Assembly (NCBI GenBank): GCA_946415375.1
Contig: CAMKSF010000004.1
Coordinates: 33,697-97,696 of the forward strand
Reading direction: 5' to 3'
From: an uncultured Clostridia bacterium
GTDB taxonomy: Bacteria > Bacillota > Clostridia > TANB77 > CAG-508
Length of the DNA: 64,000 nt
Part shown: positions 32,996 to 54,154 of the stretch, one piece after another
Position numbering within the stretch: position 1 is the stretch's first letter
Layout: every line of letters begins with the position of its first letter
The notes under the pieces: model-generated
The model's database searches: none
What the model was told of the DNA's origin: nothing
The model's input: the letters and a program-made list of their open reading frames with translations, nothing else
Made by a program: the position numbers and the translations under genes

Positions 32996-34417
32996 ATGAT
33001 AGATTCAAAAAATGGAGTAATAGGACTGGCTATTGGAGATGCAATGGGAGTGCCACTAGAATTTTGTATAAGAGAAAAATTGCAAAAAAATATAACAACA
33101 GAAATGTTAGGGTATGGAAGCCATAATGTACCAAAAGGAACATGGTCAGATGATACTTCTATGACACTTGGTTTAATTGATGCGATTAATAAAACTGGAA
33201 ATATTATACCAACAGATATTGCAGATAATTTTGTTAAATGGGCAGAAAACGCAGAATTTACTGCAACAGGTGTTAGATTTGATATAGGAAGAACATGTTT
33301 AAGAGCTATTGCAAATTATGAGAAGGGAATAAATCCAATAGAATGTGGTTTAGATGATGAATTTAGTAATGGAAATGGATCTTTAATGAGAATACTACCA
33401 TTAATATATTATTGCTATGCTAAAAAAATGAATAATACTGAAATATATGAAGTTGTTAGAGATGTATCTTCTATTACTCATAGACACGAAATAAGTATAA
33501 TGGGATGCTATATTTATGTTTTATTTGGAATAGAACTATTAAATGGAGCAAAATTAAATGAAGCATATAAAAAGATAAGAGAAAGTGATTATTCTATGTT
33601 TTCAAAACAATGTCAAAAAAAGTATAATAGAATAATAAACACAGATATTTCTTTATTAAACATGGATGAAATAAGCTCTAGTGGATATGTAGTAGATACT
33701 TTAGAAGCTACTTTATGGGGATTACTTACAACAGATGATTATAACTCTGCTATAATAAAAGTTATAAATCTAGGAAATGACACTGATACTATTGGAGCCT
33801 GTGTAGGAGGACTTGCAGGAATATATTATGGATTAGATAACATTAATAACAACTGGAAAAGTAATTTAATAAAGTATGAATATATTGTAGAATTATGTGA
33901 GAAGTTTAATGGGGTGCTAAATAAAGCTAATTCTAAGAAGATACCAGAAGATAATAGAAATGTTTTCTTTATTGATATTAGAGAAAGGGAAAAAAGAGAG
34001 AAATTTGTAAATGAAATATTAGAATTTGAAGGGATGTCACTTATAAATAATAATGCAGATAGTTTTGATTTAGCTAAAGAAGCGGTAATAAAATCTAATT
34101 TTCCAATTTCAATTGATTTTAAAAAGTTAGAATTAGACTTTTTAAAAAACACTACTACTGCAGCTGCAGCGATAACAAACAAGTCGATATTTATTACTCC
34201 TGAAGAAGCATTAAAAAAGGTAGAAAGTAGATTAAATGAATGGAAAAAATATAAGGAAGAAGTAATTATAAGTTTAACAACACAAGTTTATGAACATACA
34301 GTAGAATATGCAAAAGAATTAGTTGAAAGCTATGAATTAGATATATTTGAAGAATTCTTTTTGAAAAATGAAACACCTTTAGATTGTGCAATTGACATTG
34401 GTTATTGTTGTGGATGA
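32996..34417 (+). CDS. ADP-ribosylglycohydrolase-family protein with a ~170-aa C-terminal extension
   Basis: GLAIGDAMGVPLEF, WSDDTSM, and GNDTDTIGACVGGLAG. Confidence 0.85.
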   Translation: MIDSKNGVIGLAIGDAMGVPLEFCIREKLQKNITTEMLGYGSHNVPKGTWSDDTSMTLGLIDAINKTGNIIPTDIADNFVKWAENAEFTATGVRFDIGRTCLRAIANYEKGINPIECGLDDEFSNGNGSLMRILPLIYYCYAKKMNNTEIYEVVRDVSSITHRHEISIMGCYIYVLFGIELLNGAKLNEAYKKIRESDYSMFSKQCQKKYNRIINTDISLLNMDEISSSGYVVDTLEATLWGLLTTDDYNSAIIKVINLGNDTDTIGACVGGLAGIYYGLDNINNNWKSNLIKYEYIVELCEKFNGVLNKANSKKIPEDNRNVFFIDIREREKREKFVNEILEFEGMSLINNNADSFDLAKEAVIKSNFPISIDFKKLELDFLKNTTTAAAAITNKSIFITPEEALKKVESRLNEWKKYKEEVIISLTTQVYEHTVEYAKELVESYELDIFEEFFLKNETPLDCAIDIGYCCG

Positions 34418-34511
34418 TTTACAAGTTAAAAACAATAATAGATTGTAATGCTTTAAGAAAGTTTGGAATTGTTTGAAAGACTTATAAATACGGAGAAAAG
34501 GAGAGAATTTT

Positions 34512-35111
34512 ATGCCAAATATAAAATGGATTGGATTTATAGATAAAAATGAAATTGAAAAGTATCAAAAAGGAGAGCTAGATAGTAATGCCATTAAAAT
34601 GAAAATGCCTGAAACTATGAATAAAATGATGATAAAAGCTTTTCCATTTGTAATACCTTCACTTATTATAATGTTTCTGGCTATGTATTTAAAAGGACAT
34701 ATAAACAATCACATTGTAGTATACAAACCATATATGTTTATAGGTCTTATAATAGGATTTTTTTTGTCAATAATACATGAATTCTTACATGCTGTTGTTT
34801 ATCCTCAAGGTGTTAATACATACATAGGAATAGCCAAGCCTGTAACTTTTGTTGCATTAGCATCGTATCCTTTAAAAAAGGGAAGATTTATTGTAATGTG
34901 CTTATTACCATATATATTAGGGATTGTACCATTAATAATTTTTTTGCTTTCTCCTGCTAATAATCTTTTATTAAATAGTATTATATATGGTATTGCTTTT
35001 GTTGGGATGGCGAGTCCATATCCAGATGCTTATAATGTTTATCAAGTTATAAGACAAGTACCTAAAGGGAAGAAAGTTCAATTTTATGGGGATGACACTT
35101 ATTATATTTAG
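34512..35111 (+). CDS. DUF3267-like membrane protein (putative zincin)
   Basis: HEFLHAVVY (HExxH) between TM helices. Confidence 0.5.
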   Translation: MPNIKWIGFIDKNEIEKYQKGELDSNAIKMKMPETMNKMMIKAFPFVIPSLIIMFLAMYLKGHINNHIVVYKPYMFIGLIIGFFLSIIHEFLHAVVYPQGVNTYIGIAKPVTFVALASYPLKKGRFIVMCLLPYILGIVPLIIFLLSPANNLLLNSIIYGIAFVGMASPYPDAYNVYQVIRQVPKGKKVQFYGDDTYYI

Positions 35112-35348
35112 AATAACAAATTACAATTTGGGATATGGAAATTATATCATAATTGAAAATGATGAAGAATATAAGTTTTATATTGTTTGTTGAGTTCCAT
35201 CATGGATAATAGCGATGAAATATAGGTTAGAATATTTAATCTATATTTTTTTTTTGAATATTTTTAATTAAAAATGCAACGAAATTAAAAAATATGGTAA
35301 TATATTAATGAAAGATATCTTAAAAATAATAAGGAGTTTAGATCTAAA

Positions 35349-35894
35349 TTGAAAATGAAAGATGTACCAATATACAACTATTTTAATGGAAATACATTAT
35401 TAATAGAAAATATAGTAAATGATTTTTCAAACTATATTTATACAGTAATTAGAAATTCTAACTTAAAAGTTTCAGATGAAGATATAGAAGAATTAGTTAG
35501 TGATGTTGTTTTTACTATATGGAAAAATCAAGATAAGCTCGATATCAATAGAAAAATAACACCATATATTGCAGGTATAACAAATAATTTAGTAAAAAAG
35601 AAATACCGAGATACAAAAGTTTTTGATAATATTGAAGATTATGAAAATAATTTAATTGAAGATAGCAATATAGAGTTACAATTTATTGAAAATGAGCGTA
35701 ATAAAGGTATAATGAAACAATTAGATAAATTAAAAAAAGAAGACAAGACTATTTTTATTTTATATTATTTTAATGAAAAGAGTATTAACGATATTGCAAA
35801 TGAATTAAATATGACTGAGTCTAAAGTGAAATCTAAATTGTTTCGAACAAGAAAAAAATTAAAAAAATATTTAAAAGAAAAAGAGGGGGTATAA
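35349..35894 (+). CDS. ECF-type sigma-70 family RNA polymerase sigma factor
   Basis: Region 2 (VVFTIWKNQDKL) and region 4 HTH (KSINDIANELNMTESKVKSKLFRTRKKL). Confidence 0.8.
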   Translation: MKMKDVPIYNYFNGNTLLIENIVNDFSNYIYTVIRNSNLKVSDEDIEELVSDVVFTIWKNQDKLDINRKITPYIAGITNNLVKKKYRDTKVFDNIEDYENNLIEDSNIELQFIENERNKGIMKQLDKLKKEDKTIFILYYFNEKSINDIANELNMTESKVKSKLFRTRKKLKKYLKEKEGV

Positions 35895-35899
35895 TTCAA

Positions 35900-36616
35900 A
35901 TGATTGATAAAAACAAAATTATAGATAACATTCAAAAGAATATTGCACTTTCAAATTTTGAGAGTGAATTGAAATCAGATAAAGATAATAAAGAATATAC
36001 CCACAAAAATAATGGGAGGATATATGATATGAAAAAAATGATTATTGCAGTTTCTTGTTGCAGTATAATGCTTATTGGTGGATTTGCATATGCATATAGT
36101 AGTCATTTTAAATTAAGTAATAATTTTTTAGAAAAAGATAGGAATTATTTAGATATAATAGAAAGAAGTTTTGGAAACTCTGTAGAAAATGAAAAAGAAG
36201 AAGATAAAGGTAAGTTTTTAAATGGAAGAAAATTTTTAAATGGGTACTATATAGCAGGTAAATTTAATCAAGTTATGGGGAAAAATACAAAATATGAATA
36301 TGTACATAAAGGAATTGATATAGTAGCTCCAAGAGGAACAAAAATTTTAGCACTAGCAAATGGCGTAATAAAAGAAACAAACTACAATTCTATAAATGGA
36401 AATTATATTCTAATTGAGCATGAGGAGGGATATGAGACTTTATATGCTCATTTAGATAAAATTAGTGTAAAAGAAGGAGATGATGTATTGCAAGGTGAAG
36501 AAATAGGAAAAGTTGGAATAACAGGGAATACAGTAGCACCTCATTTACATCTTGAATTACATCATAATGGAGAACCTGTCAACCCAATGGAGTATATTGA
36601 TAAAATAAAGGAATAA
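35900..36616 (+). CDS. Membrane-anchored M23-family metallopeptidase in the anti-sigma position
   Basis: One TM helix (IIAVSCCSIMLIGGFAYAY), then HKGIDIVAPRGT and HLHLELHHNGEPVNP. Confidence 0.8.
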   Translation: MIDKNKIIDNIQKNIALSNFESELKSDKDNKEYTHKNNGRIYDMKKMIIAVSCCSIMLIGGFAYAYSSHFKLSNNFLEKDRNYLDIIERSFGNSVENEKEEDKGKFLNGRKFLNGYYIAGKFNQVMGKNTKYEYVHKGIDIVAPRGTKILALANGVIKETNYNSINGNYILIEHEEGYETLYAHLDKISVKEGDDVLQGEEIGKVGITGNTVAPHLHLELHHNGEPVNPMEYIDKIKE

Positions 36617-36668
36617 AGCTCATAAAACAATGGTAAATAAAATATATGAAACGCATAAGCAAGATTTG

Positions 36669-36697
36669 TCAAGGGGTTAAGGCTCCTTGATTTTTTT
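36669..36697 (+). terminator. Intrinsic terminator
   Basis: TCAAGG (36669-36674) / CCTTGA (36685-36690), then TTTTTTT. Confidence 0.6.
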
Positions 36698-36769: not shown

Positions 36770-36805
36770 CAAGATGTTGACTTTTTCAACATCTTGTAAT
36801 ATAAT
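36770..36805 (+). promoter_or_regulatory. Promoter overlapped by a perfect inverted repeat (candidate XRE operator)
   Basis: TTGACT (36777-36782), 17-nt spacer, TATAAT (36800-36805). Inverted repeat CAAGATGTTGA (36770-36780) / TCAACATCTTG (36786-36796). Confidence 0.6.
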
Positions 36806-36835
36806 ATAAAAAGGAGTATTGTGAGGAGATGGAAT

Positions 36836-37168
36836 ATGAATAAGGATAATTATAAAAAAATAGGAGAAAAATTAAGAAAAGCAAGAGAATATTTGAGTTT
36901 AACACAGGCACAAGTTGCTTCAATTTTAAATTTAGGAAGAGATGCAATTATAAGAATAGAAAATGGAACGAGAAAGATAGATGCAGAAGAATTGTTAAAA
37001 TTTTCAGAATTATATAAAATTAGTATTGATGAGATAGTAAATCATAAAACTACAGTATATACTGAAAATGCTTTTGCTAGAGGATTTGAAAAATTAAGTG
37101 AACAGGATCAAAAAGAAATACTAAATTTAATAAAATTGAAAAATGAGTACAAGAGTAAGGAAGGATAA
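36836..37168 (+). CDS. XRE-family HTH regulator
   Basis: LRKAREYLSLTQAQVASILNLGRDAIIRIENG. ATG 36836 sits 7 nt after GAGGAG (the track starts at GTG 36821). Confidence 0.8.
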   Translation: MNKDNYKKIGEKLRKAREYLSLTQAQVASILNLGRDAIIRIENGTRKIDAEELLKFSELYKISIDEIVNHKTTVYTENAFARGFEKLSEQDQKEILNLIKLKNEYKSKEG

Positions 37169-37169
37169 T

Positions 37170-38540
37170 ATGGAACAAGAAATGACACCAGAGAAATTGG
37201 CAAATAGTGTTTTAGATGAGATTAAGTCTAGACAAGGTGTAATAAAATTTCCGATAGATCCATTTGAATTATTAAAAAATAAAGAAATAATAATATCTTT
37301 TTCAAATTTTGAAAAGCTTGAAGGAATAATACTAAATGATAGAGATAATGTAACAATTGTTGGCATTAATAAAAATAGACCTTGGACAAGACAAAGATTT
37401 ACTGCAGCACATGAATACTGCCATTATATTAAAGATTTAAATAAAGCGGAAAATGAAGTTAATAGAATAGACTGCCTAAAGGGAGCTAAGAGTAAGATAG
37501 AACAATTTGCAGATAGATTTGCATCTTGTTTGTTAATGCCGAGTTTCAAGATTTTAGAATTATGTGACAAATATAAAAATGAAAGAGGTTTTATTGATTT
37601 TGAAAATGTAACATATATGGCTGAATTTTTTGGCGTTAGTTTTAAAAGTTGTATTAATAGATTAGCTTATGATTTTAAAATGATTGAAGGAGATATAACA
37701 CCAAATGCTTTAAAACAAAGAGTTAGAAAGTATAAACCAGAAGTTAAAAGAAAAGAATTAATTAATAAAAATAATGATTTCTTGTTAATTGGAAATGCTA
37801 TAGATAGTTTGAGCTACTGTATGGTAGACTTAAGTACTAATACAGGAGCTAAATTTTTAAATAATTATATTTATTATGACAATAAATTAGAAGGAGTAGA
37901 TGAAGATAAAGTACCATATATTCTTGCAGATTTAACATATAACAAGCAGAAGAGTGAATTTTTACGATCGCAAGATGAAAAAGTAATAATGACTCTTGGA
38001 AATTATAAATTGCAAGAATATATATTAACTACGGATGATATGATTTCAATATTGGACTGCAAGAAAATGCACAAAATGTTATATGCATATGTTCCATTTC
38101 AGGAATTTGCAGGTAATTATAGAGATAATGATGCAATTATTTTAAATGGAACTATACAACCAAGTAGCTATATAACAATTGAAGCAGATATAAAAACATT
38201 AAGTGAAGAGTTTGATTTTTTTATAAAGGATATTAATAACCTAAAAATGAGTGAATATATAGAAAGAGTAGTATATTTTATTTACAGATTTATAAAAATT
38301 CATCCTTTTTCTGATGGGAATGGAAGAGTATCAAGAGCACTATTAAACTGGATGTTGAAACTGAAACGTATACCACCAATATATGTAGACGATAAAAGTA
38401 GAGATGAATACTATAATTCACTTTCGAAAATTGATATAGAAGGAGATTATATACCTTTTATAATATTTGTTGAGAAGAGAATAATAAATACATTAACAGA
38501 ATTGCATGATTATTTATTTACAGAGAATTGGGAGGGATAA
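37170..38540 (+). CDS. ImmA/IrrE-type Zn-metallopeptidase fused to a C-terminal Fic domain
   Basis: N-terminal FTAAHEYCHYIKD (HExxH) and FADRFASCLLMP. C-terminal canonical Fic motif HPFSDGNGRVSRAL. ATG 37170 lies 1 nt after the XRE stop. Confidence 0.8.
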   Translation: MEQEMTPEKLANSVLDEIKSRQGVIKFPIDPFELLKNKEIIISFSNFEKLEGIILNDRDNVTIVGINKNRPWTRQRFTAAHEYCHYIKDLNKAENEVNRIDCLKGAKSKIEQFADRFASCLLMPSFKILELCDKYKNERGFIDFENVTYMAEFFGVSFKSCINRLAYDFKMIEGDITPNALKQRVRKYKPEVKRKELINKNNDFLLIGNAIDSLSYCMVDLSTNTGAKFLNNYIYYDNKLEGVDEDKVPYILADLTYNKQKSEFLRSQDEKVIMTLGNYKLQEYILTTDDMISILDCKKMHKMLYAYVPFQEFAGNYRDNDAIILNGTIQPSSYITIEADIKTLSEEFDFFIKDINNLKMSEYIERVVYFIYRFIKIHPFSDGNGRVSRALLNWMLKLKRIPPIYVDDKSRDEYYNSLSKIDIEGDYIPFIIFVEKRIINTLTELHDYLFTENWEG

Positions 38541-38542
38541 TT

Positions 38543-38947
38543 ATGTGGCCTAGAAATAAATATACTGGTCCAGATGGCGGATTATATACTGGACCAGGGG
38601 GTGGATTATATACTGGCCCAGGAGGCGGAGCATATACTGGTCCAGGAGGCGGGCTATATACTGGCCCAGGAGGCGGGCTATATACCGGTCCAGGAGGCGG
38701 ACTATATACCGGTCCAGGAGGCGGACTATATACCGGTCCAGGAGGCGGATTATATACTGGTCCAGGAGGCGGATTATATACTGGACCAGGAGGCGGATTA
38801 TATACTGGACCAGGAGGAGGAATGTATGATGGCCCTGGAAAACCATATATGAGCAATATTCCACCGTGGGAAGTATTTATTAAAAAATTAGAAGAATATG
38901 GATATACTTATGAAGCTGAATTGATAAAAAGAGCATATTATGGATAA
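38543..38947 (+). CDS. Gly/Pro/Tyr-rich repeat protein, (YTGPGGGL)x11 plus a 40-aa unique tail
   Basis: ATG 38543 lies 2 nt after the Fic stop, with GGGAGGG upstream. Differences between repeat units are synonymous in this frame. The gene is followed by a terminator. Confidence 0.75.
   Translation: MWPRNKYTGPDGGLYTGPGGGLYTGPGGGAYTGPGGGLYTGPGGGLYTGPGGGLYTGPGGGLYTGPGGGLYTGPGGGLYTGPGGGLYTGPGGGMYDGPGKPYMSNIPPWEVFIKKLEEYGYTYEAELIKRAYYG
38561..38824 (+). repeat. 24-bp tandem repeat, 11 units (a 12th decayed unit runs to 38845)
   Basis: tatacYggNccaggNggNggNNta repeated head-to-tail. Local GC is far above the flanks. Confidence 0.95.
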
Positions 38948-38951
38948 AAAT

Positions 38952-38988
38952 AGACGGGATCAAAAGAATTTGAATCTCGTCTTTTTTT
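38952..38988 (+). terminator. Intrinsic terminator of the XRE/ImmA-Fic/repeat operon
   Basis: AGACGGGAT (38952-38960) / ATCTCGTCT (38974-38982, one G-T pair), followed by a T-run. Confidence 0.7.
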
Positions 38989-39095: not shown

Positions 39096-39124
39096 TTGAC
39101 AGAAATAGAAAAATATGCTATAAT
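39096..39124 (+). promoter_or_regulatory. Sigma-A-type promoter
   Basis: TTGACA (39096-39101), 17-nt spacer, TATAAT (39119-39124). Confidence 0.55.
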
Positions 39125-39159
39125 TAATATATAGTAGCAAAAAACCAAGGAGGTAAAAT

Positions 39160-40959
39160 ATGAAAAATAATAAAAAAGAAAAGTTTAACTCAGAAGAAAT
39201 ATACTGGAATTTCTTAAATTTATTTAGGGAATATATAGGAAAAGATGACTTTAGAAAAATGTTTTATGCTAAACTATATCTTATATATTTAGCAAAAAGA
39301 TATAAGTTCATCGACTTAAAGGAATGCAAAAATTTTAGTGAACTACTAAAAAAAATTAATGATTTATGGTTTGCACTTGATATTACTAAAGAATACAATA
39401 ATATTAACGATATTAATGAATTATTTGAAAAAAACTATACTAACGAAGAATTAGATGGCGAAATGTTCAATGCAATGTCAAAATTAACTGAAGAAGAAAT
39501 TGCAGAAATATTTAGAAAAAACAGTATAGAATATAAACGATATTCAAGTATACAAAATGATACAACATCAAAATCAATAGCTGAACTTGTAAGCAAAATT
39601 TTAAATATTGAAAACAATGAAGAAGTTTTGGATTTATGTTCTGGTAATGGTGATTTTTTAGCAAGCTTAACGAATAATGAAAAGGATATGAATCTAAATG
39701 GCATTGAAATCGATAAAGATATTGCATTTATATCTAAAATTAGATTAACAGTTTTATCAAATAAAGAGCCTAATATAGTGGTGGATGATGCCTTAACATA
39801 TGATTTTGGTAAAAAATTTGATAAAATATTTTGTGAATATCCTTTTGGACTAAGGGTAGATAGCTATCGAATTAACAAATTAAGTAATCAAATGTTTTAT
39901 TCATGGAACAAACCAGGATTAACATCTGATTGGATTTTCTTAAATAAAATAGTAACATTATTAAAAAACAATGGTATGGCAGCAATATTAATTACTGATG
40001 GGCCTTTGCTTAAATCAATGGATAAGGATTATAGGAAAGATATCCTTGAAAGCAAACTAGTAAAATATATAATTAAATTACCTAGTGGAATAATACCATA
40101 TACTAATATAAATCCGAATTTAATTATTTTATCAAAAGGCAATGATAGAAATGAAATAACATTCATAGATGCCACACAAGAGTATAAAGAAAATAGTCTA
40201 AAAGAAAGACAATTAAATGTTGATTCAATTATGGAATTAATTAATGATAAAAATAATGATACGGATAAAGTGAAGACTGAAAAAATTAATAAAATTTGTA
40301 GTACTGATGATGTAGTATTAACAGTTAATTCTTATGTAAAAAAGAAGGAACCAAATTATATTAATCCACATATACTTAAAGATTATTTAACAGATAAATA
40401 TAGAGGTTACCAATTTTCATCAAAGGAGCAAGCAGAAATAGAAGATATTAATGGAGATTATGAATTATTAACTATTGGGGACATTAATGAAGGCATAATT
40501 AGTAGTAATTTATTAAAAATAAATGGAAATAACAATAAATATGATAGATATTTGCTAAAAACAGGAGATGTTGTGATTTCATCAAGAGGAACTAAAATAA
40601 AAGTAGCAGTTGCTGAAGTAGGGAATAGAAAGATTATACCTAATGGAAATCTATTAGTATTACGTTTAGATACTGAGAAAATAGATCCATATTATTTAGA
40701 AGCATATCTTAATTCTGAAAATGGGCTTTTAACTTTAAAGAAAATACAAACAGGTGCAGTAATTATATCTATTAATCCAAGTAGAATTGAGCAAATAAAG
40801 GTTTCAATGGTAAATAAAGAAGAACAAGAATTATTTGTAGAAAAATATAAACGAAAAATGACAGAATTATTTTTGGCTCAGGAGCATGTAAAAAAACTTA
40901 AGGATCAAATCAACAATTTATTTACAAAAGAAATAGAGGAGAAAAATGGAAATGGATAA
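39160..40959 (+). CDS. HsdM-like N6-adenine methyltransferase fold fused to one HsdS-type target-recognition domain, with a degenerate catalytic motif
   Basis: Motif I VLDLCSGNGDFL. Motif IV reads FCEYPFG (EYPF at 39835-39846) instead of NPPF/Y. C-terminal LKTGDVVISSRGTKIKVAVAE..IPNGNLLVLRL..DPYYLEAYLNSENG is HsdS-TRD-like, followed by a coiled-coil tail. Confidence 0.7.
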   Translation: MKNNKKEKFNSEEIYWNFLNLFREYIGKDDFRKMFYAKLYLIYLAKRYKFIDLKECKNFSELLKKINDLWFALDITKEYNNINDINELFEKNYTNEELDGEMFNAMSKLTEEEIAEIFRKNSIEYKRYSSIQNDTTSKSIAELVSKILNIENNEEVLDLCSGNGDFLASLTNNEKDMNLNGIEIDKDIAFISKIRLTVLSNKEPNIVVDDALTYDFGKKFDKIFCEYPFGLRVDSYRINKLSNQMFYSWNKPGLTSDWIFLNKIVTLLKNNGMAAILITDGPLLKSMDKDYRKDILESKLVKYIIKLPSGIIPYTNINPNLIILSKGNDRNEITFIDATQEYKENSLKERQLNVDSIMELINDKNNDTDKVKTEKINKICSTDDVVLTVNSYVKKKEPNYINPHILKDYLTDKYRGYQFSSKEQAEIEDINGDYELLTIGDINEGIISSNLLKINGNNNKYDRYLLKTGDVVISSRGTKIKVAVAEVGNRKIIPNGNLLVLRLDTEKIDPYYLEAYLNSENGLLTLKKIQTGAVIISINPSRIEQIKVSMVNKEEQELFVEKYKRKMTELFLAQEHVKKLKDQINNLFTKEIEEKNGNG

Positions 40960-41467
40960 AATGGATTTAATACAATTAAGAGAAAGTGTTTTTCAAAAAA
41001 TAACAAAGGAACTTACCAATGCATATTTTAATGGAACAATAGATGACTTTTTGGAAAAATATGATTTAAAAGAAGAAAACAACGATGAATCTTTTTATTA
41101 TGATAGTAATAATGCTAAGATTATAGTAATAGGTGATTCTAGAATAAGCAAAAGCGATATGGAGGGTTTAGCTAAGCACAACGGAATTAATCCTCGAAGA
41201 ATAGAATTCGTTTTAGATTATGAAAAACTTACAAATTTTAATTTTGAAAGATTTAGAAATAATATGAAATATTCTGATATATTAGTAGGCCCTATTCCAC
41301 ATAAAGTTAAAGGTTTAGATGCTGCGTCAAGCTTTTTGAATATGGTGAATAATCAACCAGATTGCTTTCCAAGAGTAATAGCTTTAAGAGATGCAAATGA
41401 ATTAAAGATTACTAAACAATCATTTTTAAATGGATTACTAAAGACAAGATTATTTAATGAAATATAA
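40946..41467 (+). CDS. Small protein, DUF2325-like
   Basis: Overlaps the previous gene by 14 nt. KIIVIGDSRIS...YSDILVGPIPHKVKG resembles my recollection of the DUF2325 pattern (ivGG...aDlvi..td.vsH). Confidence 0.4.
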   Translation: MEMDKMDLIQLRESVFQKITKELTNAYFNGTIDDFLEKYDLKEENNDESFYYDSNNAKIIVIGDSRISKSDMEGLAKHNGINPRRIEFVLDYEKLTNFNFERFRNNMKYSDILVGPIPHKVKGLDAASSFLNMVNNQPDCFPRVIALRDANELKITKQSFLNGLLKTRLFNEI

Positions 41468-41487
41468 AAATTTTGAAAGGAGAAGAA

Positions 41488-42789
41488 ATGAACGAGATTA
41501 GATGTCCAAATTGTGGAAAAGTATTCCAAATTGACGAAACAAGTTATGAGTCAATTGTAAAACAAATTAGAGACAACGAATTCAACAAACAAATAGACGA
41601 AAGAGAAAAACGATATAAAACAGAAAAAGAAAATGAGATAAAACTTGCAGAAGCACACATTAAAGAAGAATTACAAAAGCAGATTAATGATAGGGATATT
41701 GAGCTTGCAGATTTAAAAAATCAAGTTGCAAATATTGAAGAACAAACTAAAACAAAATTAGATAAAGATTACCAAGAGCAAATCAACCAAAAGAATACAG
41801 AAATATTAGAACTAACAAATAAATTGAAATTAAATGAAACAAATAGTAAGCTAGAAATTAACAAAGCTCTTTCAGAAAAAGAACAGAAGATTACTGAATT
41901 AAGTAGTGAACTAGAATTAAAGAATAAAGAATACGAATTAAAAGAGCGTAGTATAAAGGAAGATTTTAATGCGCAACTAAAAAATAAAGATGAGCAAATT
42001 GAGTATTATAAAGATTATAAAGCAAGACAATCAACAAAAATGATTGGTGAGTCTTTAGAGGTTCATTGCAGTAATGAATTTAATAAATTAAGACCGCTGT
42101 TTCCAAAGGCATATTTTGAAAAAGACAATGATGCCCATACAGGCTCAAAAGGCGATTATATTTATAGGGACTTTGATGATGATGGAAATGAAATAGTTTC
42201 TATTATGTTTGAAATGAAAAATGAAGCGGATGAAACGGCAACAAAACATAAAAATGAAGATTTCCTTAAAGAACTAGATAAAGATCGTAGAGAAAAGAAA
42301 TGTGAGTATGCAGTATTAGTAAGTCTATTAGAAATAGATAATGATTTTTATAATAATGGAATAGTAGATGTATCACATAAGTATGAAAAAATGTATGTAA
42401 TAAGACCACAATTTTTTATACCATTAATTACTTTAATACGCAATTTATCAAATAAATCACTTGAGTATCGTAAAGAACTAGAGTTAATTAAAAATAAAAA
42501 TATTGATATTACAAATTTTGAAGATAAGATAGAACAATTTAAAAATGATTTTGGTAGAAATGCAAGATTAGTTGGCGAAAAATTTAAAAAGGCAATTGAT
42601 GAAATAGATAAAAGTATTAGTAGCTTGCAAAAAACGAAAGATAATCTAGTTAGATGCGCAGAAAATTTGCGTATTGCAAATGGTAAAGCAGAAGATTTAA
42701 CAATTAAAAGACTTACACGAGGAAACGAAACTATGAAGAAATTGTTTGAAGAAGCTAGAAAAACAGATGATGATAATCCACAAGATTAA
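41488..42789 (+). CDS. DUF2130-family protein (Zn ribbon, long coiled coil, PD-(D/E)xK-like C-domain)
   Basis: MNEIRCPNCGKVFQIDETSYESIVKQIRDNEF, then a ~150-aa coiled coil, then GESLEVHC..KGDYIYRDF..VSIMFEMKNE. ATG 41488 follows AGGAG (the track starts at TTG 41473). Confidence 0.65.
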   Translation: MNEIRCPNCGKVFQIDETSYESIVKQIRDNEFNKQIDEREKRYKTEKENEIKLAEAHIKEELQKQINDRDIELADLKNQVANIEEQTKTKLDKDYQEQINQKNTEILELTNKLKLNETNSKLEINKALSEKEQKITELSSELELKNKEYELKERSIKEDFNAQLKNKDEQIEYYKDYKARQSTKMIGESLEVHCSNEFNKLRPLFPKAYFEKDNDAHTGSKGDYIYRDFDDDGNEIVSIMFEMKNEADETATKHKNEDFLKELDKDRREKKCEYAVLVSLLEIDNDFYNNGIVDVSHKYEKMYVIRPQFFIPLITLIRNLSNKSLEYRKELELIKNKNIDITNFEDKIEQFKNDFGRNARLVGEKFKKAIDEIDKSISSLQKTKDNLVRCAENLRIANGKAEDLTIKRLTRGNETMKKLFEEARKTDDDNPQD

Positions 42790-43816: not shown

Positions 43817-44075
43817 ATGAAAAAATGGTTTATTAGAGAATACTTGGAATACGCCATTAAGAAGATATTTAGATTATGAAATTAAACATTTTGAAAAGTT
43901 AAGTTTACATAGTTTTAGATTTTATACTGATGAAGAACATTCAGATAATTATTATTCTGATTTTTCTATACAATATGGTTTAAGAAACTTATCAAAAGAA
44001 ATATATAAAGATAAATATAAAAAGGAAAGCAAAACTAAAACTATAAAGGGAGATAATTATGATAGAAAACAATGA
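43817..44075 (+). pseudogene. Small ORF broken by a frame change at an A6 run
   Basis: ATG AAA AAA TGG... stops after 20 codons. The +1 frame is open for 84 codons with no start codon and ends at 44075, overlapping the next gene. Removing one A from the run would fuse the two. Confidence 0.3.
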
Positions 44076-46074
44076 TAGCCCAATTGTAACAAAAAATCAA
44101 CTAATTGATATATTATATACTATTAATACTGAAAATGTAAAAACAACACATTATGGTAAAGTAATAAATAAAGAAGGTCTTAATAGTATTATAGATTTTA
44201 TTATTGAATTAGAATCTGAATCCGAGGAAGTATATTGTTTTAAAGATGTTATGATTTTTGACCCAATAATAAAAAAAACTCATGGGTTGGATTTTTCAAA
44301 AGAATTTATGAGTACATACTTTTTTAATATTGGTATTGATAAATACATTTATATATTATCTACAGAATCATGTAAAGAGAAGAATTCTGAAAACAAAATT
44401 AGATTTGTAATTAGGCAATTAGATTTAATACTTAATAATAAACTAAATGAAGGAAACAAAAATAATTGGTTAATAGAAACTAGAAGTAAGTATGTTAATA
44501 TTCTTAATAAATATATAGAACAAAATAAAACGATAACTGAAAAATTAAAAGAATATGATTACATTAAAATTATATCCGATAATAATAAGTACAATAATAT
44601 AAATATTACAGATATAGAAAAATGTTTAGAATTTTTAAAAGAGAATGAACAATATAATTATCTTACGATAGATGAAGAAATAATATTAAAACTAATAATA
44701 TTATATGGGATTAGAAATATCTATTATAATAATACAGATTATTATAAAGAACAATATTCTGAATCAATTAATAAAGCAATTAAAAGTTTAGAATCTTATA
44801 TTTTATTTATTGAAACAAACTCAAAAAATGTAAAAGATATGTATATATATTCAAATAATTATGATGCTTCCATAAATCTATTCGAGTATTTAAACAGAAA
44901 AATAGTTTATGGAAAAATGCTTATAAAGGACGACAAAACAAATTATTTGACTAATAAAGATATAATAATCAAACTAAAAGAAGTATCTTTCTTTAATAGG
45001 TTGTGTATAATTTATCAAAATGAATTTATAATATTAATTAAAAATATGAGATATATTAATTTTGACTATTGTGTTTCAAATAATTTTTTTGAAAAAGCAA
45101 AAGAGCTATTTAAAAAAGATTTAGAATTATTTAAATATTTTAAAGACAATAATTGTAATGCTGAAGATATGTATAAAGAAGTACTAACTAATACAGAAAA
45201 TAAACCTATTGAATTTAAAAGATATATAAAACTAATTCTAAAATATTATATAAGCTGCTATAACTATTTTAAGCATTTTAATGATAATGATAATGCAAAT
45301 AAAGTATTCGATTTTTTACATTTTTTTAAAGATGGCTATGATATTGAAGATTTTATTATAAAAGGTAAATATATAAAAATGTCGGAAGATGTGAATAATA
45401 TAAAGTTAGAAAATATTGATGATATTGATGAAGTTGAAAAAACAATTAATAATATTAACGAAAAAATTACAAAAATGAATTTAGTAAATTCATTTGATAT
45501 TGATGATGTAACAAAAACATATAGTAATATTAAATTTGAAAATTTTAGATTGGAAAATAGAGAAAAAATTAAGACATACATTGCAACTGGTGATAAAATA
45601 ATGAATAGTTTTAATAACGATAAAAACGAGAAGTTTGACTATTCTTCAGCGGTTATTGAGTGGAGTAAAGCTGTTGAACTTGAAATAAATGAAAAGCTTA
45701 TATCAATATTAACAGAGAATGATAAATATAAAATTGAAAACTATTCAAAAGAGATTAATCAGGACAATTTATTTAGAAGTAGTCATCCATTTGTATTAAA
45801 TCTTAAAGATGCTACTATTGGTACTTTTGATGCTATCAAGAAATATAAATTACAAGATTATTTATATAATGAATTCTTTAGCAAAATATATACAGTTGAT
45901 AAAGATACATATAATAATTTATGTAATTATTTAGTTGAAATTGTAATTCCAAGAAATAATTCAGCACATAAAGATAATCCAATTAATTTAGTTACAGCAA
46001 CAGATTGCAAAGAAAAAATATTAACTGCTAATAAGATATTAGAAATTTTATCAAAATTAAAAAGAATTAATTAG
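44059..46074 (+). CDS. Large N/K/I/Y-rich protein with a C-terminal Rx4H (HEPN/DUF4145-like) motif
   Basis: 671 aa. The C-terminal ~170 aa read YSSAVIEWSKAVELEINEKL...IVIPRNNSAHKD (R-x4-H). The N-terminal 500 aa match no family I recognise. Confidence 0.5.
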   Translation: MIENNDSPIVTKNQLIDILYTINTENVKTTHYGKVINKEGLNSIIDFIIELESESEEVYCFKDVMIFDPIIKKTHGLDFSKEFMSTYFFNIGIDKYIYILSTESCKEKNSENKIRFVIRQLDLILNNKLNEGNKNNWLIETRSKYVNILNKYIEQNKTITEKLKEYDYIKIISDNNKYNNINITDIEKCLEFLKENEQYNYLTIDEEIILKLIILYGIRNIYYNNTDYYKEQYSESINKAIKSLESYILFIETNSKNVKDMYIYSNNYDASINLFEYLNRKIVYGKMLIKDDKTNYLTNKDIIIKLKEVSFFNRLCIIYQNEFIILIKNMRYINFDYCVSNNFFEKAKELFKKDLELFKYFKDNNCNAEDMYKEVLTNTENKPIEFKRYIKLILKYYISCYNYFKHFNDNDNANKVFDFLHFFKDGYDIEDFIIKGKYIKMSEDVNNIKLENIDDIDEVEKTINNINEKITKMNLVNSFDIDDVTKTYSNIKFENFRLENREKIKTYIATGDKIMNSFNNDKNEKFDYSSAVIEWSKAVELEINEKLISILTENDKYKIENYSKEINQDNLFRSSHPFVLNLKDATIGTFDAIKKYKLQDYLYNEFFSKIYTVDKDTYNNLCNYLVEIVIPRNNSAHKDNPINLVTATDCKEKILTANKILEILSKLKRIN

Positions 46075-46093: not shown

Positions 46094-46759
46094 TTGGAAA
46101 AGCAACAAGTTAAATCGAAAAAGAGAGTGGCCGATCATGGAGAAGTATTTACCAATCAAAGGGAAGTAAATGCTATGTGTGATATGGTTATTCAGGAAAC
46201 GGAGAGAATAGATTCAAGATTTCTTGAACCAGCTTGTGGGGATGGCAATTTTTTAATTGAAATATTAAAGAGAAAACTAAGAATTGTAAAGAAAAAGTAT
46301 AAAAAAAGCATATATGATTATGAAAGATTTTCGTTACTAGCAATAAGTAGTCTGTATGGAGTAGAACTTTTAGAAGATAATGTTGTTGCATGTAGAAAAA
46401 GATTATATGACTATTGGCAAAGCGAGTATAAAATAGTTAGTAAAAAAGAATATGATGAAAAAGTATCAGATTCAGCAAAATATATTTTAGAACATAATAT
46501 TGTTTGTGGAAATGCATTAAGCTTAAAACGTGTTGATGATAAAGGAAATGATATTGAAACACCAATTATTTTTTCAGAATGGACATTTCCGTTTAATGAT
46601 GCAAGAATGCAAAGAAAAGATTATACATTAGATGAATTAGTTAAAAGAGATTATAAACAACAGGAAATTAACAATACAAATGATGAGGGGAAATTTTTAA
46701 AACAATATATAACACATTATAAGAAATTAAATAATAAAGGGGGAAAAGTTAATGAGTAA
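46094..46759 (+). CDS. Methyltransferase N-domain paralogue (SAM-binding motif I only, no NPPY)
   Basis: HGEVFTNQREVNAMCDMV...FLEPACGDGNFLIEIL parallels the N-terminus of the next gene. No (D/N)PP(Y/F) anywhere. TTG start behind GGAGG. Confidence 0.6.
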   Translation: MEKQQVKSKKRVADHGEVFTNQREVNAMCDMVIQETERIDSRFLEPACGDGNFLIEILKRKLRIVKKKYKKSIYDYERFSLLAISSLYGVELLEDNVVACRKRLYDYWQSEYKIVSKKEYDEKVSDSAKYILEHNIVCGNALSLKRVDDKGNDIETPIIFSEWTFPFNDARMQRKDYTLDELVKRDYKQQEINNTNDEGKFLKQYITHYKKLNNKGGKVNE

Positions 46760-48299
46760 TGGTTTATTAGAAAGTTCATATAATCCTGATGTATTATCAT
46801 GCCTTGCAAATCTTTCAAACGATGAAGTATTTACATCACCTGATATTGTAAATGAAATGCTTGATATGTTACCAAAAGAATTATTTAAGAATCCCGACAC
46901 AACTTTTTTAGAACCAGCATGTAAAACAGGAGTATTTTTAAGAGAAATTGCAAAAAGATTAATAGATGGATTAGAACCACAATTTCCAAATTTAAATGAT
47001 AGGTTAAATCACATTTTTAAGAAGCAGTTATATGGTATATCAGTTACTGAATTAACAAGTTTATTATCAAGGAGAAGTTTATATTGTTCGAAATGGCCTA
47101 ATGGAGAATACTCAATTATAAAATTTGATACTCCAGAAGGAAATATTAAATATAGAAGAATAGAACATACATGGAAAAATGGTAACTGTGTATATTGTGG
47201 AGCAAGTGAAAAAGAGTATAAGAGAGGATCAGACCTAGAAACTTATGCATATCAATTTATACATACTAATAAACCAGAGGAGATTTTTAATATGAAATTT
47301 GATGTTATTATAGGTAATCCACCTTATCAATTAAGTACAGGTGGAGGAGGAGAGCAAAGCAGACAAGCTAAGCCAATATATAATATTTTTATAGAACAAG
47401 CAATGAAAATGAAACCAAGATATTTATCAATGATAATTCCTTCAAGATGGTTTTCAGGAGGAATGGGGTTAGATTCATTTAGAGAAAAAATGTTAAATGA
47501 TAAGTCAATGAGATATTTAGTAGATTATCCTAATTCTTCTGAAGTATTTTATGGAGTTGATATTGCGGGTGGAATATGCTATTTTCTTTGGGATAGAGAC
47601 TATAATGGAGAATGTCAGGTATCTAATATAGAAGGAGGAAAAGAAACAAAGGATATTAGACCATTAAATGAATTTCCGACTTTTGTAAGATATAGTAGAG
47701 CTATTCCGATTATTCGAAAAGTCCTAAAACAAGAAAATGGAAAAAAATTATCCGAGACTATATATCCACAAGGGCTATTTGGATTAAAAACAAATTATGA
47801 ACCAAAAGAAAAAGGTATTCCATGTTGGTTTATACAAAAAATAGGAAGAAAATTTGCGAATAAAGATGACGTAATTGATACTTATAATATACTAAATAAG
47901 TGGAAATTTTTAATACCTAAATCACCTATAGCAGGACAAACTGATTTTACAAAGCCTGTAGGATTTTACTATGATGGCAATACAAGAGTAGCTAAACCAG
48001 GTGAATGTTGCACACAATCTTGGATTGTGGCAGGAGCATTTGATACTGAAGAAGAAGTATTAAATTTTAAATCATATTTATTTACCAAAACTGTTAGATT
48101 TTTACTATTACAACAGGTTGTTTCTCAAGATGTGTCTAGAAATAAATTTTGCTTTGTGCCTGCATTAGAAAAATATGACAAAAGATATACTGATGAAATA
48201 TTAAGAAAAAAATGGGATATTACTGAAGAAGAATGGAACTATATAGATTCGAGAATACATAATTATGGAGATAATAGGGGGGATTATGATGAACAATGA
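46752..48299 (+). CDS. Eco57I-type N6-adenine DNA methyltransferase
   Basis: NDEVFTSPDIVNEMLDML, FLEPACKTGVFLREI, IIGNPPYQL, and RWFSGGMG. Overlaps the previous gene by 8 nt. Confidence 0.8.
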   Translation: MSNGLLESSYNPDVLSCLANLSNDEVFTSPDIVNEMLDMLPKELFKNPDTTFLEPACKTGVFLREIAKRLIDGLEPQFPNLNDRLNHIFKKQLYGISVTELTSLLSRRSLYCSKWPNGEYSIIKFDTPEGNIKYRRIEHTWKNGNCVYCGASEKEYKRGSDLETYAYQFIHTNKPEEIFNMKFDVIIGNPPYQLSTGGGGEQSRQAKPIYNIFIEQAMKMKPRYLSMIIPSRWFSGGMGLDSFREKMLNDKSMRYLVDYPNSSEVFYGVDIAGGICYFLWDRDYNGECQVSNIEGGKETKDIRPLNEFPTFVRYSRAIPIIRKVLKQENGKKLSETIYPQGLFGLKTNYEPKEKGIPCWFIQKIGRKFANKDDVIDTYNILNKWKFLIPKSPIAGQTDFTKPVGFYYDGNTRVAKPGECCTQSWIVAGAFDTEEEVLNFKSYLFTKTVRFLLLQQVVSQDVSRNKFCFVPALEKYDKRYTDEILRKKWDITEEEWNYIDSRIHNYGDNRGDYDEQ

Positions 48300-51174: not shown

Positions 51175-51191
51175 AAAAGGAAGTGATAATA

Positions 51192-52115
51192 ATGTCAATA
51201 GGAAAATTAAAAGAAGTTGATATAAGAGAACTATGGAAACATGAGCAATATGATTTTTCAGAATGGCTTTCTAAAAAAGATAATATAGAAAACTTAAATG
51301 AAATTCTAGGATTAACATTAGTTGATATTAGTAAAGAAACATATGTGGGTGCATATAGATGTGATTTGTTTGCTAAAGATGAAACAACTGGTATTAAAGT
51401 AATTATAGAAAATCAATTAGAAGTATCTAATCATGATCATTTAGGAAAAATAATTACGTATGCTTCAGGATTAGATGCCAAAGTTGTGGTATGGATTGTA
51501 AAAGAAGCTAGAGAAGAACATAGAAGTGCTATTGAATGGTTAAACAACAATACTAATAGTAATGTTAATTTCTTTTTAATTGAAATCCATGCATACAAAA
51601 TAGGAGAATCGGATCCAGCTCCTATGTTTCAAGTTGTAGAACAACCTAATGATTTTATAAAAAACAATAAATCTACAAACAAGGATGAAAGTATGAACAA
51701 ATCTCAATCTCAAAGGATTGAGTTCTGGAATCAGTTTAACAAGGTTGTTATAGAAAGAGGAAAACCTTTTAACATAAGAAAAGCAACTACAGATCATTGG
51801 TATAATGTTGCAATAGGAACAAGCGAGGCTCATATTGATATAACTTTAGTTAATAAAGATTCTTTGATAGGTGTAGAATTATATATAACTGATAATAAAG
51901 AATTATTTGATAAATTGCTTGAAAAGAAGGATGATATTGAGAGAGACCTAGGATTTAAACTAGATTGGAGAAGATTAGATAATAGTAAAGCATCAAGAAT
52001 TTTTTATAGTATAAAAGGTTTAAATTTTGATGATCATAGTAATTATAATGAGTTAATGAATAAGACAATAGATTTAGCTGTTTTAATGAGAGATACTTTT
52101 AAAAAGTATATATAA
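51192..52115 (+). CDS. DUF4268-family protein with a NucS-like PD-(D/E)xK N-domain
   Basis: RELWKHEQYDFSEWL, RCDLFAKDE..VIIENQLEVSNHDHLGKIITYASGL, and IEWLNN..NFFLIEI. Confidence 0.7.
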   Translation: MSIGKLKEVDIRELWKHEQYDFSEWLSKKDNIENLNEILGLTLVDISKETYVGAYRCDLFAKDETTGIKVIIENQLEVSNHDHLGKIITYASGLDAKVVVWIVKEAREEHRSAIEWLNNNTNSNVNFFLIEIHAYKIGESDPAPMFQVVEQPNDFIKNNKSTNKDESMNKSQSQRIEFWNQFNKVVIERGKPFNIRKATTDHWYNVAIGTSEAHIDITLVNKDSLIGVELYITDNKELFDKLLEKKDDIERDLGFKLDWRRLDNSKASRIFYSIKGLNFDDHSNYNELMNKTIDLAVLMRDTFKKYI

Positions 52116-52267: not shown

Positions 52268-52624
52268 ATGAACACTATAGGAGGTCAAATACAAAGTCAA
52301 AATTTACTGAAAATTAAAAGAATTGTAGACAAAGACAATGATGGAGATAAATTTATTATTGTCAGGACTGAAAAAAATAAAAAGTTTATGCGAGAGTACA
52401 ACTTAAATCGAGAAGATATTAAGGATATTATAAGAAGACTCTCAGTAGACGACTGCTTTGCAGGTCCAGAAGAAGACAGAGATCCAAAGTACGAAGGCTG
52501 GATATTTAAGTTTAATCCAATGTTTGAAGATACGCAGTTATATATTAAAATACGAATAGAAAATATTGAAAAGTCAGTTTGTTTATCAGTGCATGAATTT
52601 GGTAAATATGATGAGGTGAATTAA
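52268..52624 (+). CDS. MqsR-like toxin (putative)
   Basis: 118 aa. IKDIIRRLSVDDCFAGP...LYIKIRIEN..VCLSVHEF follows my recollection of the MqsR pattern (L..dF...lYiK...vSFh). The toxin-first gene order matches mqsRA. Confidence 0.5.
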   Translation: MNTIGGQIQSQNLLKIKRIVDKDNDGDKFIIVRTEKNKKFMREYNLNREDIKDIIRRLSVDDCFAGPEEDRDPKYEGWIFKFNPMFEDTQLYIKIRIENIEKSVCLSVHEFGKYDEVN

Positions 52625-52625
52625 A

Positions 52626-54071: not shown

Positions 54072-54154
54072 AATATAATAATATTACAAGATTCGACAAA
54101 TTATGCACAAGTAATGCTATATAATTAATTGCTAATATGAGAAAGGAGAAAAAA

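Follow-up and report, generated by a model that had tools for sequence, protein, structure and literature searches.

A candidate repressor-protease switch fused to a Fic AMP-transferase, followed by a glycine-rich repeat gene, in a Clostridia defence island

How might a bacterium make use of an operon in which a small repressor gene is followed by a gene fusing a zinc peptidase to a Fic adenosine monophosphate (AMP)-transferase and, in third place, by a gene for a protein of tandem YTGPGGGL-type repeats? This question is raised by a locus in a 64,000-nucleotide stretch of contig CAMKSF010000004.1 (hereafter the window) from an uncultured Clostridia bacterium, a low-GC organism (~26%) that is represented by metagenome assemblies only. 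We propose that the locus is an autoregulated repressor-protease switch whose protease is fused to a self-inhibited class II Fic payload and that gene 3 is an accessory or second payload, a reading to which we assign a probability of roughly 0.55. The two-gene switch as such is probably a phage-defence or toxin module.

The original prediction, made from the nucleotides alone, had placed three tightly packed plus-strand genes behind one consensus promoter and had seen a perfect inverted repeat with 11-bp arms on its -35 region. Gene coordinates and promoter sequence agree with this description (Table 1), and the three genes form one compact transcription unit with its own promoter and its own terminator. 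The arms of the inverted repeat read CAAGATGTTGA and TCAACATCTTG, and the -35 hexamer lies inside the palindrome, whose core is ATGTTGA-N5-TCAACAT. In 12 related loci the same core is kept over a TTGAC -35 hexamer about 17 bp 5′ of TATAAT, and more distant loci carry related TGTTAG...CTAACA half-sites upstream of their XRE genes. A palindrome conserved over the -35 hexamer upstream of XRE genes reads as the signature of an autoregulated operator, and a dimer of the gene 1 repressor is its presumed ligand. The terminator had been overlooked by a simple terminator scan; none of 200 shuffled sequences folds equally well. Upstream, an M23-peptidase gene is closed by a terminator-like hairpin (36668–36691). 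Since the downstream gene, a DNA methyltransferase gene at 39160, has its own consensus promoter (39096–39124), the operon, which does lie in a defence island as had been said, constitutes a separate transcription unit. For the first two genes the starts given by the open reading frame (ORF) finder (GTG 36821 and ATG 37143) are less likely than those listed in Table 1, while the genes themselves stand; the best start of gene 2 lies one base past gene 1 and is preceded by AAGGAAGG.

Table 1. Features of the three-gene operon in the window (nucleotide positions count from the first base of the window; aa, residues of the encoded protein)
Feature	Position	Strand	Description
Operator (candidate)	36770–36796	+	Perfect 11-nt inverted repeat, arms 36770–36780 and 36786–36796, 5-nt spacer, 100% complementary
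Promoter, sigma-70 type	36777–36805	+	TTGACT-17-TATAAT, 11/12 consensus matches
Gene 1	36836–37168	+	110-aa XRE/CapH-like repressor; ATG 36836 preceded by GAGGAGA
Gene 2	37170–38540	+	456-aa CapP/ImmA-type Zn-metallopeptidase fused to a class II Fic AMP-transferase; ATG 37170
Gene 2, peptidase half	aa ~1–170		HEYCH, aa 81–85 (37410–37424); Cys102; third ligand Glu111
Gene 2, helical linker	aa ~175–215		
Gene 2, Fic half	aa ~225–450		DNKLEG, aa 237–242 (37878–37895); HPFSDGNGRVSRAL, aa 378–391 (38301–38342)
Gene 3	38543–38947	+	134 aa; ATG 38543, preceded by GGGAGGG, 2 nt past the gene 2 stop
Gene 3, parts	38561–38824 (repeats)		Head MWPRNK; 11 YTGPxGG[LAM] units; tail PYMSNIPPWEVF, then two-helix cap
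Terminator, intrinsic	38951–38988	+	Imperfect hairpin and U-run, -16.5 kcal/mol, z = -4.9

Gene 1 is an XRE protein, as had been predicted: its N-terminal helix-turn-helix (HTH) region (aa 10–69) matches Pfam HTH_19 (3.1e-12) and HTH_3 (2.4e-11), and its best matches among the defence models of PADLOC are capH (7.5e-12) and PDC-M69A (3.6e-11). Among 56 distinct sequences of XRE partners a C-terminal motif, FAR-GF..LSE.DK.EI..LI, reaches at least 80% conservation, and by analogy with CapH the domain carrying it is a candidate cleavage and dimerisation region. Gene 2 had been described as an ImmA/IrrE Zn-peptidase fused to a canonical Fic domain, which is what Pfam, PADLOC and structure prediction recover. 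Pfam places Peptidase_M78 at aa 60–165 (4.9e-13) and Fic at aa 296–396 (4.2e-14). In PADLOC the first ~165 residues match capP (6.1e-28), an alignment covering model positions 6–151 of 242 only, and the C-terminal half matches PDC-S04 (6e-18) and SoFic (2e-16). The AlphaFold (AF2) model of gene 2 (predicted local distance difference test score, pLDDT, 90.0; predicted template modelling score, pTM, 0.88) leads to the same two families in Foldseek, the N-terminal half retrieving the crystal structure of Thauera CapP (7t5t, 1.1e-5) and the C-terminal half FICD/HYPE (2e-9), BT_2513 (1e-6), CdFic (9.5e-6) and also SoFic.

Both active sites are conserved among 68 homologues that share 44–91% identity with gene 2. 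In the peptidase half H81, E82, H85 and E111 are invariant, and so is the intervening Cys102, which by its sequence position between HExxH and the third ligand falls into the same segment as the cysteine-switch loop of CapP. In the Fic half the active-site motif HxFx(D/E)GNGRxxR is present as HPFSDGNGRVSR (aa 378–389), of which H378, F380, G383 and N384 are invariant and D382, G385 and R386 are kept in at least 90% of the homologues. N-terminal to the Fic core, and in the same chain, lies an inhibitory motif of the (S/T)xxxE(G/N) type with Asp instead of Ser/Thr at position -4. Alignment by hidden Markov models lays its residues DNKLEG onto TVAIEG of FICD and thereby Glu241 onto FICD Glu234; Glu241 is invariant and Gly242 kept in at least 90% of the homologues. 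An intramolecular N-terminal inhibitory helix is the defining trait of class II Fic enzymes. Judged by its sequence, the Fic half of gene 2 belongs to class II, is similar to FICD and SoFic and comes with an inhibitory Glu of its own. With this motif in the same polypeptide it would therefore need no trans-acting antitoxin, and the (S/T)xxxE(G/N) motif is absent from the sequences of gene 1 and gene 3.

To see how far the arrangement extends beyond the window, we collected 80 metagenome loci by means of an alignment of M78::Fic proteins; only such gene 2-seeded loci give an unbiased view of co-occurrence, the Fic-containing gene 3 loci having been found partly via gene 3. Wherever upstream sequence is left in the metagenome sample, the M78::Fic gene is immediately preceded by an XRE gene, the two overlapping by up to 40 nt or being up to 16 nt apart. 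The conserved unit is thus a pair of genes, XRE and M78::Fic. It also occurs in non-defence settings, for instance between a two-component system and argS (L002) and among glycosyltransferase genes (L158). Proteins of ~450–470 residues with both M78 and Fic form 321 clusters at 90% identity in a large protein database, under generic or automatic names only ('Fic family protein' or a JGI domain label). This family, abundant in gut Bacillota, has no name in the sources searched: with the automatic JGI domain label as the one exception, the literature search returned no paper that pairs 'Peptidase_M78' with 'Fic domain', and no paper on M78::Fic fusions or on the gene 3 family was found in the literature searched. 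The earlier statement that no system of this architecture had been described holds to this extent, but the components resemble CapH/CapP and SoFic.

We therefore compared the locus with these and other characterized systems. CapP combines peptidase, HTH and GAF domains, and single-stranded DNA (ssDNA) binds between the first and the last of these (bioRxiv 10.64898/2026.05.16.725639; 10.1101/2022.04.27.489752); it is kept inactive by a cysteine-switch loop and cuts CapH at F82-R83 in the C-terminal dimerisation domain (bioRxiv 10.64898/2026.05.16.725639). As in CapH/CapP, ImmR/ImmA of ICEBs1 and DdrO/IrrE of Deinococcus, a small XRE gene lies directly 5′ of a gene for an M78 (COG2856) peptidase. 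HExxH, the downstream Glu and a conserved Cys between them, a candidate counterpart of the cysteine switch that is present in many but not all CapP proteins, are shared as well, and so are an operator over the promoter, an immune context, the top PADLOC matches and the structural match 7t5t. Unlike in CapP, however, the HTH-GAF C-terminal part is gone from gene 2 and Fic stands in its place, the payload is fused to the protease whereas that of CapH/CapP resides in a separate operon, and the cyclic oligonucleotide-based antiphage signalling system (CBASS) of this window is 15 kb off and not adjacent.

The Fic half in turn shares with SoFic and other class II enzymes (FICD/HYPE, CdFic and BT_2513) the HPFxDGNGRxSRA motif, the FICD-like fold and an N-terminal inhibitory helix with a Glu on FICD E234. 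It differs from them in the Asp at position -4 of the inhibitory motif and from SoFic also in lacking the winged-helix C-terminal domain and in adding an N-terminal M78 domain and a separate XRE partner. SoFic is a validated anti-phage defence gene (10.1101/2022.05.11.491447). It is reported to AMPylate EF-Tu and binds its own promoter, and both FICD and SoFic are bifunctional enzymes of AMPylation and deAMPylation (10.64898/2026.07.09.737422). RosmerTA likewise brings M78, HTH and a toxin together in a small defence operon. There, however, HTH and M78 are fused in RmrA and the toxin is separate, whereas here the HTH protein is separate and M78 is fused to the toxin, so that the locus is not a RosmerTA; the window proteins also match RmrA models weakly (1e-6 to 1e-8, versus 3.7e-119 for a true RmrA in locus L001). 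Altogether the locus would work like a CapH/CapP switch joined to a SoFic-type toxin, yet it fits neither architecture as defined, because it has no GAF domain and joins effector and protease in one protein.

From this comparison a working model can be drawn. In resting cells an XRE dimer would sit on the ATGTTGA-N5-TCAACAT palindrome and keep the operon near-silent. A signal of stress or infection would then activate the Zn-peptidase, probably through release of a CapP-like cysteine switch at Cys102; this trigger need not be ssDNA, because Fic replaces the GAF domain of CapP. The activated peptidase may cut the C-terminal domain of the XRE protein at or near the FAR motif, by analogy with F82-R83 of CapH, whereupon the operon would be derepressed and the Fic half perhaps freed from an XRE-bound, inhibited state. 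Fic might next AMPylate an essential host protein and thereby arrest growth, for which EF-Tu (SoFic) and GyrB/ParE (VbhT/FicT) offer analogies. The outcome would be a defence of the abortive-infection or toxin type, consistent with the location in a defence island. That the ImmA half couples cleavage of the XRE protein to Fic activity, as originally proposed, is plausible by analogy, given the capH and capP matches and the similarity to 7t5t. Gene 3 would have become a translationally coupled third cistron in one Bacillota lineage, most likely as a second payload or accessory under the same switch.

Gene 3 itself was analyzed on the level of sequence, fold and genomic company. It begins 2 nt past gene 2 and holds 11 repeat units of YTGPxGGx, both as announced; Tandem Repeats Finder reports a 24-bp unit in 10.9 copies. 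The units differ at 17 synonymous versus 3 non-synonymous codons, hence the YTGPGGGL frame is the one under selection, and long ORFs that appear in the other frames or on the opposite strand are by-products of the repeat. The protein is rich in Gly (35%) and near-neutral (isoelectric point, pI, 6.1), and it has no match in Pfam, NCBIfam, PADLOC or PHROGs. A word-indexed search returned 857 homologues, and 349 representative clusters were obtained at E ≤ 1e-10 among 1.84 billion. The 41-aa tail used alone retrieved 2 fragments. A plasmid search matched the tail only, because the repeat was masked; a search of phage records gave no match and a literal literature search for the repeat sequence no paper. 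Members of the family share a head W-P-R-(N/D)-x-Y, 4–12 units based on GPGGG and a tail PYxSNIPPWxxF...L...G...LI. The original prediction had pointed to the Tyr-Thr pair offered by every unit as a substrate for Fic; this does not extend to the family, since the Tyr is replaced by Ser or other residues in some relatives (e.g. P0105 and P0090). Some metagenomic relatives (P0003, P0035 and P0062) bear signal peptides at their N-terminus.

The repeat of gene 3 is probably a reusable structural scaffold, as far as its sequence relatives tell. Such repeats, GPGGG(L/A)(Y/S)T, also form the end of proteins that are secreted or lipoprotein-like and have a PEGA or FKBP domain at the N-terminus (P0275, P0282 and P0312); there they are flanked by Cys-containing GPGGPC caps and come without the WPRN head and the SNIPPW tail. 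Longer proteins that match the gene 3 profile were discarded as clues to its function, being either over-extended ORFs (P0243) or such secreted PEGA/FKBP proteins without head and tail. In Neobacillus sp. PS3-12 (L013, 5965–6414) the homologue is apparently frameshifted, with the MWSRNQYTGPG head and the repeats in different frames, which is due to either a pseudogene or repeat slippage. Two other roles were considered and ruled out, that of a precursor of a ribosomally synthesized and post-translationally modified peptide, as there are no conserved modifying enzymes nearby, and that of a DNA mimic, as the protein is near-neutral.

For the fold of gene 3, AF2 was run with a 47-sequence alignment to give five models. 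In the best of them aa 4–102 are classed as 'other' by DSSP, with neither helix nor strand, and the chain is nevertheless compact; the N-terminal WP pairs via a short bridge with the segment just N-terminal to SNIPPW, and helices at aa 109–118 and 122–133 form a cap. Since the model is confident and compact, and since the protein is 35% Gly without alpha or beta structure in its repeats, a glycine-rich polyproline-II helical bundle is a well-motivated interpretation of the predicted structure. Known polyproline-II bundles are the snow flea antifreeze protein, the tip of phage S16 gp38 and the N-domain of Obg, and PE_PGRS domains are predicted ones. Gene 3 has in common with them the Gly-rich composition, a strict short period and a model without alpha or beta structure in the repeats. 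It deviates from them in a period of 8 residues (YTGPGGGL) instead of GGX triplets, in its own WPRN head and SNIPPW two-helix cap, in having no sequence or Foldseek match to a solved bundle, in being cytoplasmic in most members, and in that its fold is a predicted one. Glycine-rich polyproline-II bundles tolerate diverse flanking segments (10.1101/2023.11.25.568672).

The linkage of gene 3 to the fusion is confined to part of the gene 2 tree. In the gene 2-seeded set, the loci with a gene 3 homologue behind gene 2 are L062, L065 and L067–L070, whose gene 2 proteins are 49–67% identical to that of the window; it is missing in L064 (57%) and in every locus at or below 45% identity. Even behind a fusion 71% identical to gene 2 (P0125, locus L158) the next gene encodes an unrelated 98-aa protein. 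The three-gene arrangement recurs in L002–L006, L012, L023, L025–L027, L029, L039, L062, L065 and L067–L070, with a gene 2/gene 3 spacing between a 29-nt overlap and a 12-nt gap. When the downstream ORFs of 52 full-length fusion loci were clustered, the gene 3 family was the sole recurrent and tightly coupled one, the rest being unrelated flanks. The Fic-linked copies form a subfamily of their own by their tails, with GPGxxY as linker and, in many cases, KYHKCD at the end, which suggests long co-inheritance with gene 2 in that lineage.

Viewed from gene 3, the picture is a different one. A scan with one genome per species yielded 54 gene 3 loci in Bacillota, Actinomycetota, Pseudomonadota, Bacteroidota, Acidobacteriota, Verrucomicrobiota, Cyanobacteriota, Patescibacteria and others. 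XRE and M78::Fic adjoin gene 3 in 7 of these, all of them Bacillota; around the other 47, neither M78 nor Fic occurs within 6 kb. The flanking ORFs outside Fic loci, clustered by BLASTP (E 1e-5) and phmmer (E 1e-2), revealed no conserved partner beyond a small actinobacterial protein in three loci. This only other recurrent neighbour (L010, L014 and L018, Actinomycetota) is a protein of ~81–100 aa (MSxxNRRHVVPNPDGGWDVKAP...) encoded 5′ of the gene 3 homologue. Recognised defence genes are among the nearest neighbours in at least 10 of the 47 loci without Fic. A complete RosmerTA pair, RmrT and RmrA, lies directly 5′ of gene 3 in L001, the Gabija genes GajA and GajB are near it in L024 and in L056, and further neighbours are CD-NTase, PD-Lambda-1, dCTPase, Tmn and PDC-M03 as well as AbiU- and PDC-S31-like proteins in L013. 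Mobile elements are represented by four integrases and three DUF961 proteins. On the C. perfringens plasmid pJIR4150 (L152, 4761–5099) the homologue is found inside a Tn916-like transfer module, and in L152, L045 and L061 it occupies the same slot, between two YdcP/DUF961 genes and the gene of an FtsK-like coupling protein, in one case in reversed orientation. In a P2-type prophage (L151) it stands immediately 3′ of the terminase and portal genes, and in P2-like phages this flank of the portal gene has been described as the cos-proximal hotspot of anti-phage genes (PMC9122126). Gene 3 is therefore a facultative third cistron and not part of the core of the module, and its family is widespread, autonomous and recurrent in defence islands and mobile elements. 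The three-gene module of the original prediction does recur as a trio in other loci, but most XRE and M78::Fic pairs lack gene 3 and 47 of the 54 gene 3 loci lack M78 and Fic. Since gene 3 is limited to a subclade of gene 2 and is mostly Fic-free elsewhere, it cannot serve Fic fusions in general as antitoxin or substrate; a link between gene 3 and Fic within that subclade is possible.

These distributions bear directly on what gene 3 does behind the fusion. The decoy, antitoxin or target role first suggested for it fails as a general partnership with Fic, given this distribution and the inhibitory motif that Fic itself carries, while for the clade of the window it is neither supported nor refuted. 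Restricted to that clade, gene 3 would be a dedicated partner of Fic, acting as decoy substrate or antitoxin by taking up AMPylation on the Tyr/Thr ladder or by blocking the active site, or being the physiological target. What keeps this explanation alive is the translational coupling of gene 3 to gene 2 in all three-gene loci, and it gains from the coherent subfamily inherited with gene 2, from the Tyr-Thr pair of every unit, probably at turns of a rigid scaffold, and from a precedent: Sofic is toxic and neutralised by AS1, the product of a small downstream gene (PMC12249575). Gene 3 resembles AS1 and the class I pairs VbhT/VbhA and FicT/FicA in being a small gene immediately 3′ of a Fic gene. 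AS1 has 47 aa, however, and the class I antitoxins provide the (S/T)xxxE(G/N) helix in trans, whereas gene 3 is a 134-aa repeat protein without this motif. Because most lineages have the core module without gene 3 (even the 71% identical fusion has neither gene 3 nor a substitute), because the Fic half has its own inhibitory helix, because the family is mostly without Fic nearby and because the Tyr is not universal in it, we consider a dedicated partnership unlikely and prefer a protein that has its own activity and was placed under the switch. Such an activity could also be independent of the module altogether, gene 3 being a stand-alone anti-phage or anti-defence gene that moves between hotspots and sits behind M78::Fic merely for the inducible promoter. 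Its autonomy, patchy distribution and varied flanks would fit, as would the defence genes next to Fic-free copies and the positions beside the P2 portal gene, in the Tn916-like module and on plasmids. But gene 3 has no catalytic or sensor domain, the signal peptides of some relatives and the similar repeats of secreted proteins point to a structural scaffold, and the counts of defence neighbours come without an enrichment statistic, which leaves this explanation rather unlikely in our view, if a serious one. A bolder version, in which WPRN-(YTGPGGGL)n-SNIPPW proteins are a new class of mobile immune-conflict proteins, polyproline-II bundles that show Tyr/Thr ladders and in one form act as decoy or inhibitor of Fic, strikes us as a long shot. 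If the decoy form were true, conjugative elements, prophages and plasmids would use gene 3 to blunt Fic defences, and in the M78::Fic lineage it would have been adopted as built-in antitoxin or safety valve, so that one activity would explain both its mobile spread and its coupling to one Fic clade.

The module as a whole can be read differently, too, namely as an addiction or regulatory cassette instead of an immune system: a type II toxin-antitoxin-like unit or stress regulator serving to keep the island stable or to adjust translation, with a reversible Fic and gene 3 as a passenger. What speaks for it is that Xre-COG2856 pairs were first categorised as stress modules resembling toxin-antitoxin systems (PMC2701414), that FICD and SoFic each have two activities, that SoFic binds to its own promoter and that the two-gene module is found in non-defence settings. 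The matches to the defence models capH, capP, SoFic and PDC-S04 and the dense defence island around this copy speak against it, and a toxin-antitoxin role would be compatible with defence in any case (PMC10440598); we regard this cassette as quite improbable. The repressor-protease switch with a Fic payload, which we prefer, has its own difficulties. Its functions, namely operator binding by and cleavage of the XRE protein, a toxic Fic and defence against phages, are in every case inferred from sequence, structure prediction and context. In CapP and IrrE one half of the ssDNA groove is contributed by the GAF domain; without it, the peptidase may do something else, such as processing the fusion itself. 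As FICD and SoFic can take AMP off again, Fic could by analogy have a regulatory instead of a toxic role. The overlap or abutment of genes 2 and 3 and their joint inheritance at 49–91% gene 2 identity argue for a real functional tie, which calling gene 3 an add-on perhaps understates, and the association of gene 3 with defence islands is a hand count without a background comparison or enrichment statistic. Regarding its fold, only two of the five AF2 models reached a pLDDT of ~95 (best 95.3) and the other three 46–55, and Foldseek against PDB and BFVD found nothing for the repeats beyond a chance match of the 24-residue helical cap, although Foldseek is probably blind to this type of fold.

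Known CapH/CapP-type switches are separate regulators beside immune operons, whereas here the protease appears to have swapped its GAF sensor for an effector. In such a compact two-gene module sensing, derepression and killing may share one polypeptide, which raises the questions of what replaces the ssDNA trigger and whether proteolysis of the XRE protein also unlocks Fic. Gene 3 adds an unannotated family of ~350 clusters that recurs beside Gabija, RosmerTA and CBASS-type genes and in mobile-element hotspots; genomic company of this kind has led to new defence genes before and makes the family worth testing. If its predicted fold holds, a natural polyproline-II bundle with an 8-residue period would join a very short list.

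The surroundings of the operon were inspected as well, and the defence neighbours in the window comprise methyltransferases, a T5orf172-helicase, MqsRA-Panacea and CBASS. Upstream (32996–36616) lie genes for an ADP-ribosylglycohydrolase (473 aa), a DUF3267 putative zincin, a sigma factor of the extracytoplasmic function type and an M23 peptidase with an N-terminal anchor, in an order that is the same in other metagenome contigs with this locus (L154–L157). Downstream, 39096–40959 encodes a 599-aa N6_Mtase protein that has a long extension at its C-terminus and lies behind the promoter TTGACA-17-TATAAT, which has a perfect extended -10 (TG before it); a 173-aa ORF and a DUF2130 protein (41473–42789) follow, and the genes of 39096–42789 look like a separate restriction-modification-like unit. 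A 671-aa ORF without a Pfam match (44059–46074) occupies the lowest-GC stretch of the window (0.198), within the defence island and just 5′ of a methyltransferase/helicase cluster (46094–52115). This cluster contains an MmeI-like methyltransferase fragment, an Eco57I-type methyltransferase (515 aa), a T5orf172/ResIII helicase fusion (969 aa) and a DUF4268 protein, and it may be a type IIG/III-like or bacteriophage exclusion (BREX)-related module. Next, at 52268–53642, an MqsR-like toxin (weak Pfam match, 6.5e-4) precedes an MqsA-type HTH fused to SocA/Panacea, a Panacea-type toxin-antitoxin pair. Control of the CBASS of the window by the XRE protein and the peptidase was considered and is unlikely, as several operons and 15 kb separate the two and the module is also found where there is no CBASS. 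The CBASS core itself (54137–56313) consists of a CD-NTase (DncV-like/SMODS) followed by a ThiF/Cap2-like E1, with no CapH/CapP-like regulator adjacent.

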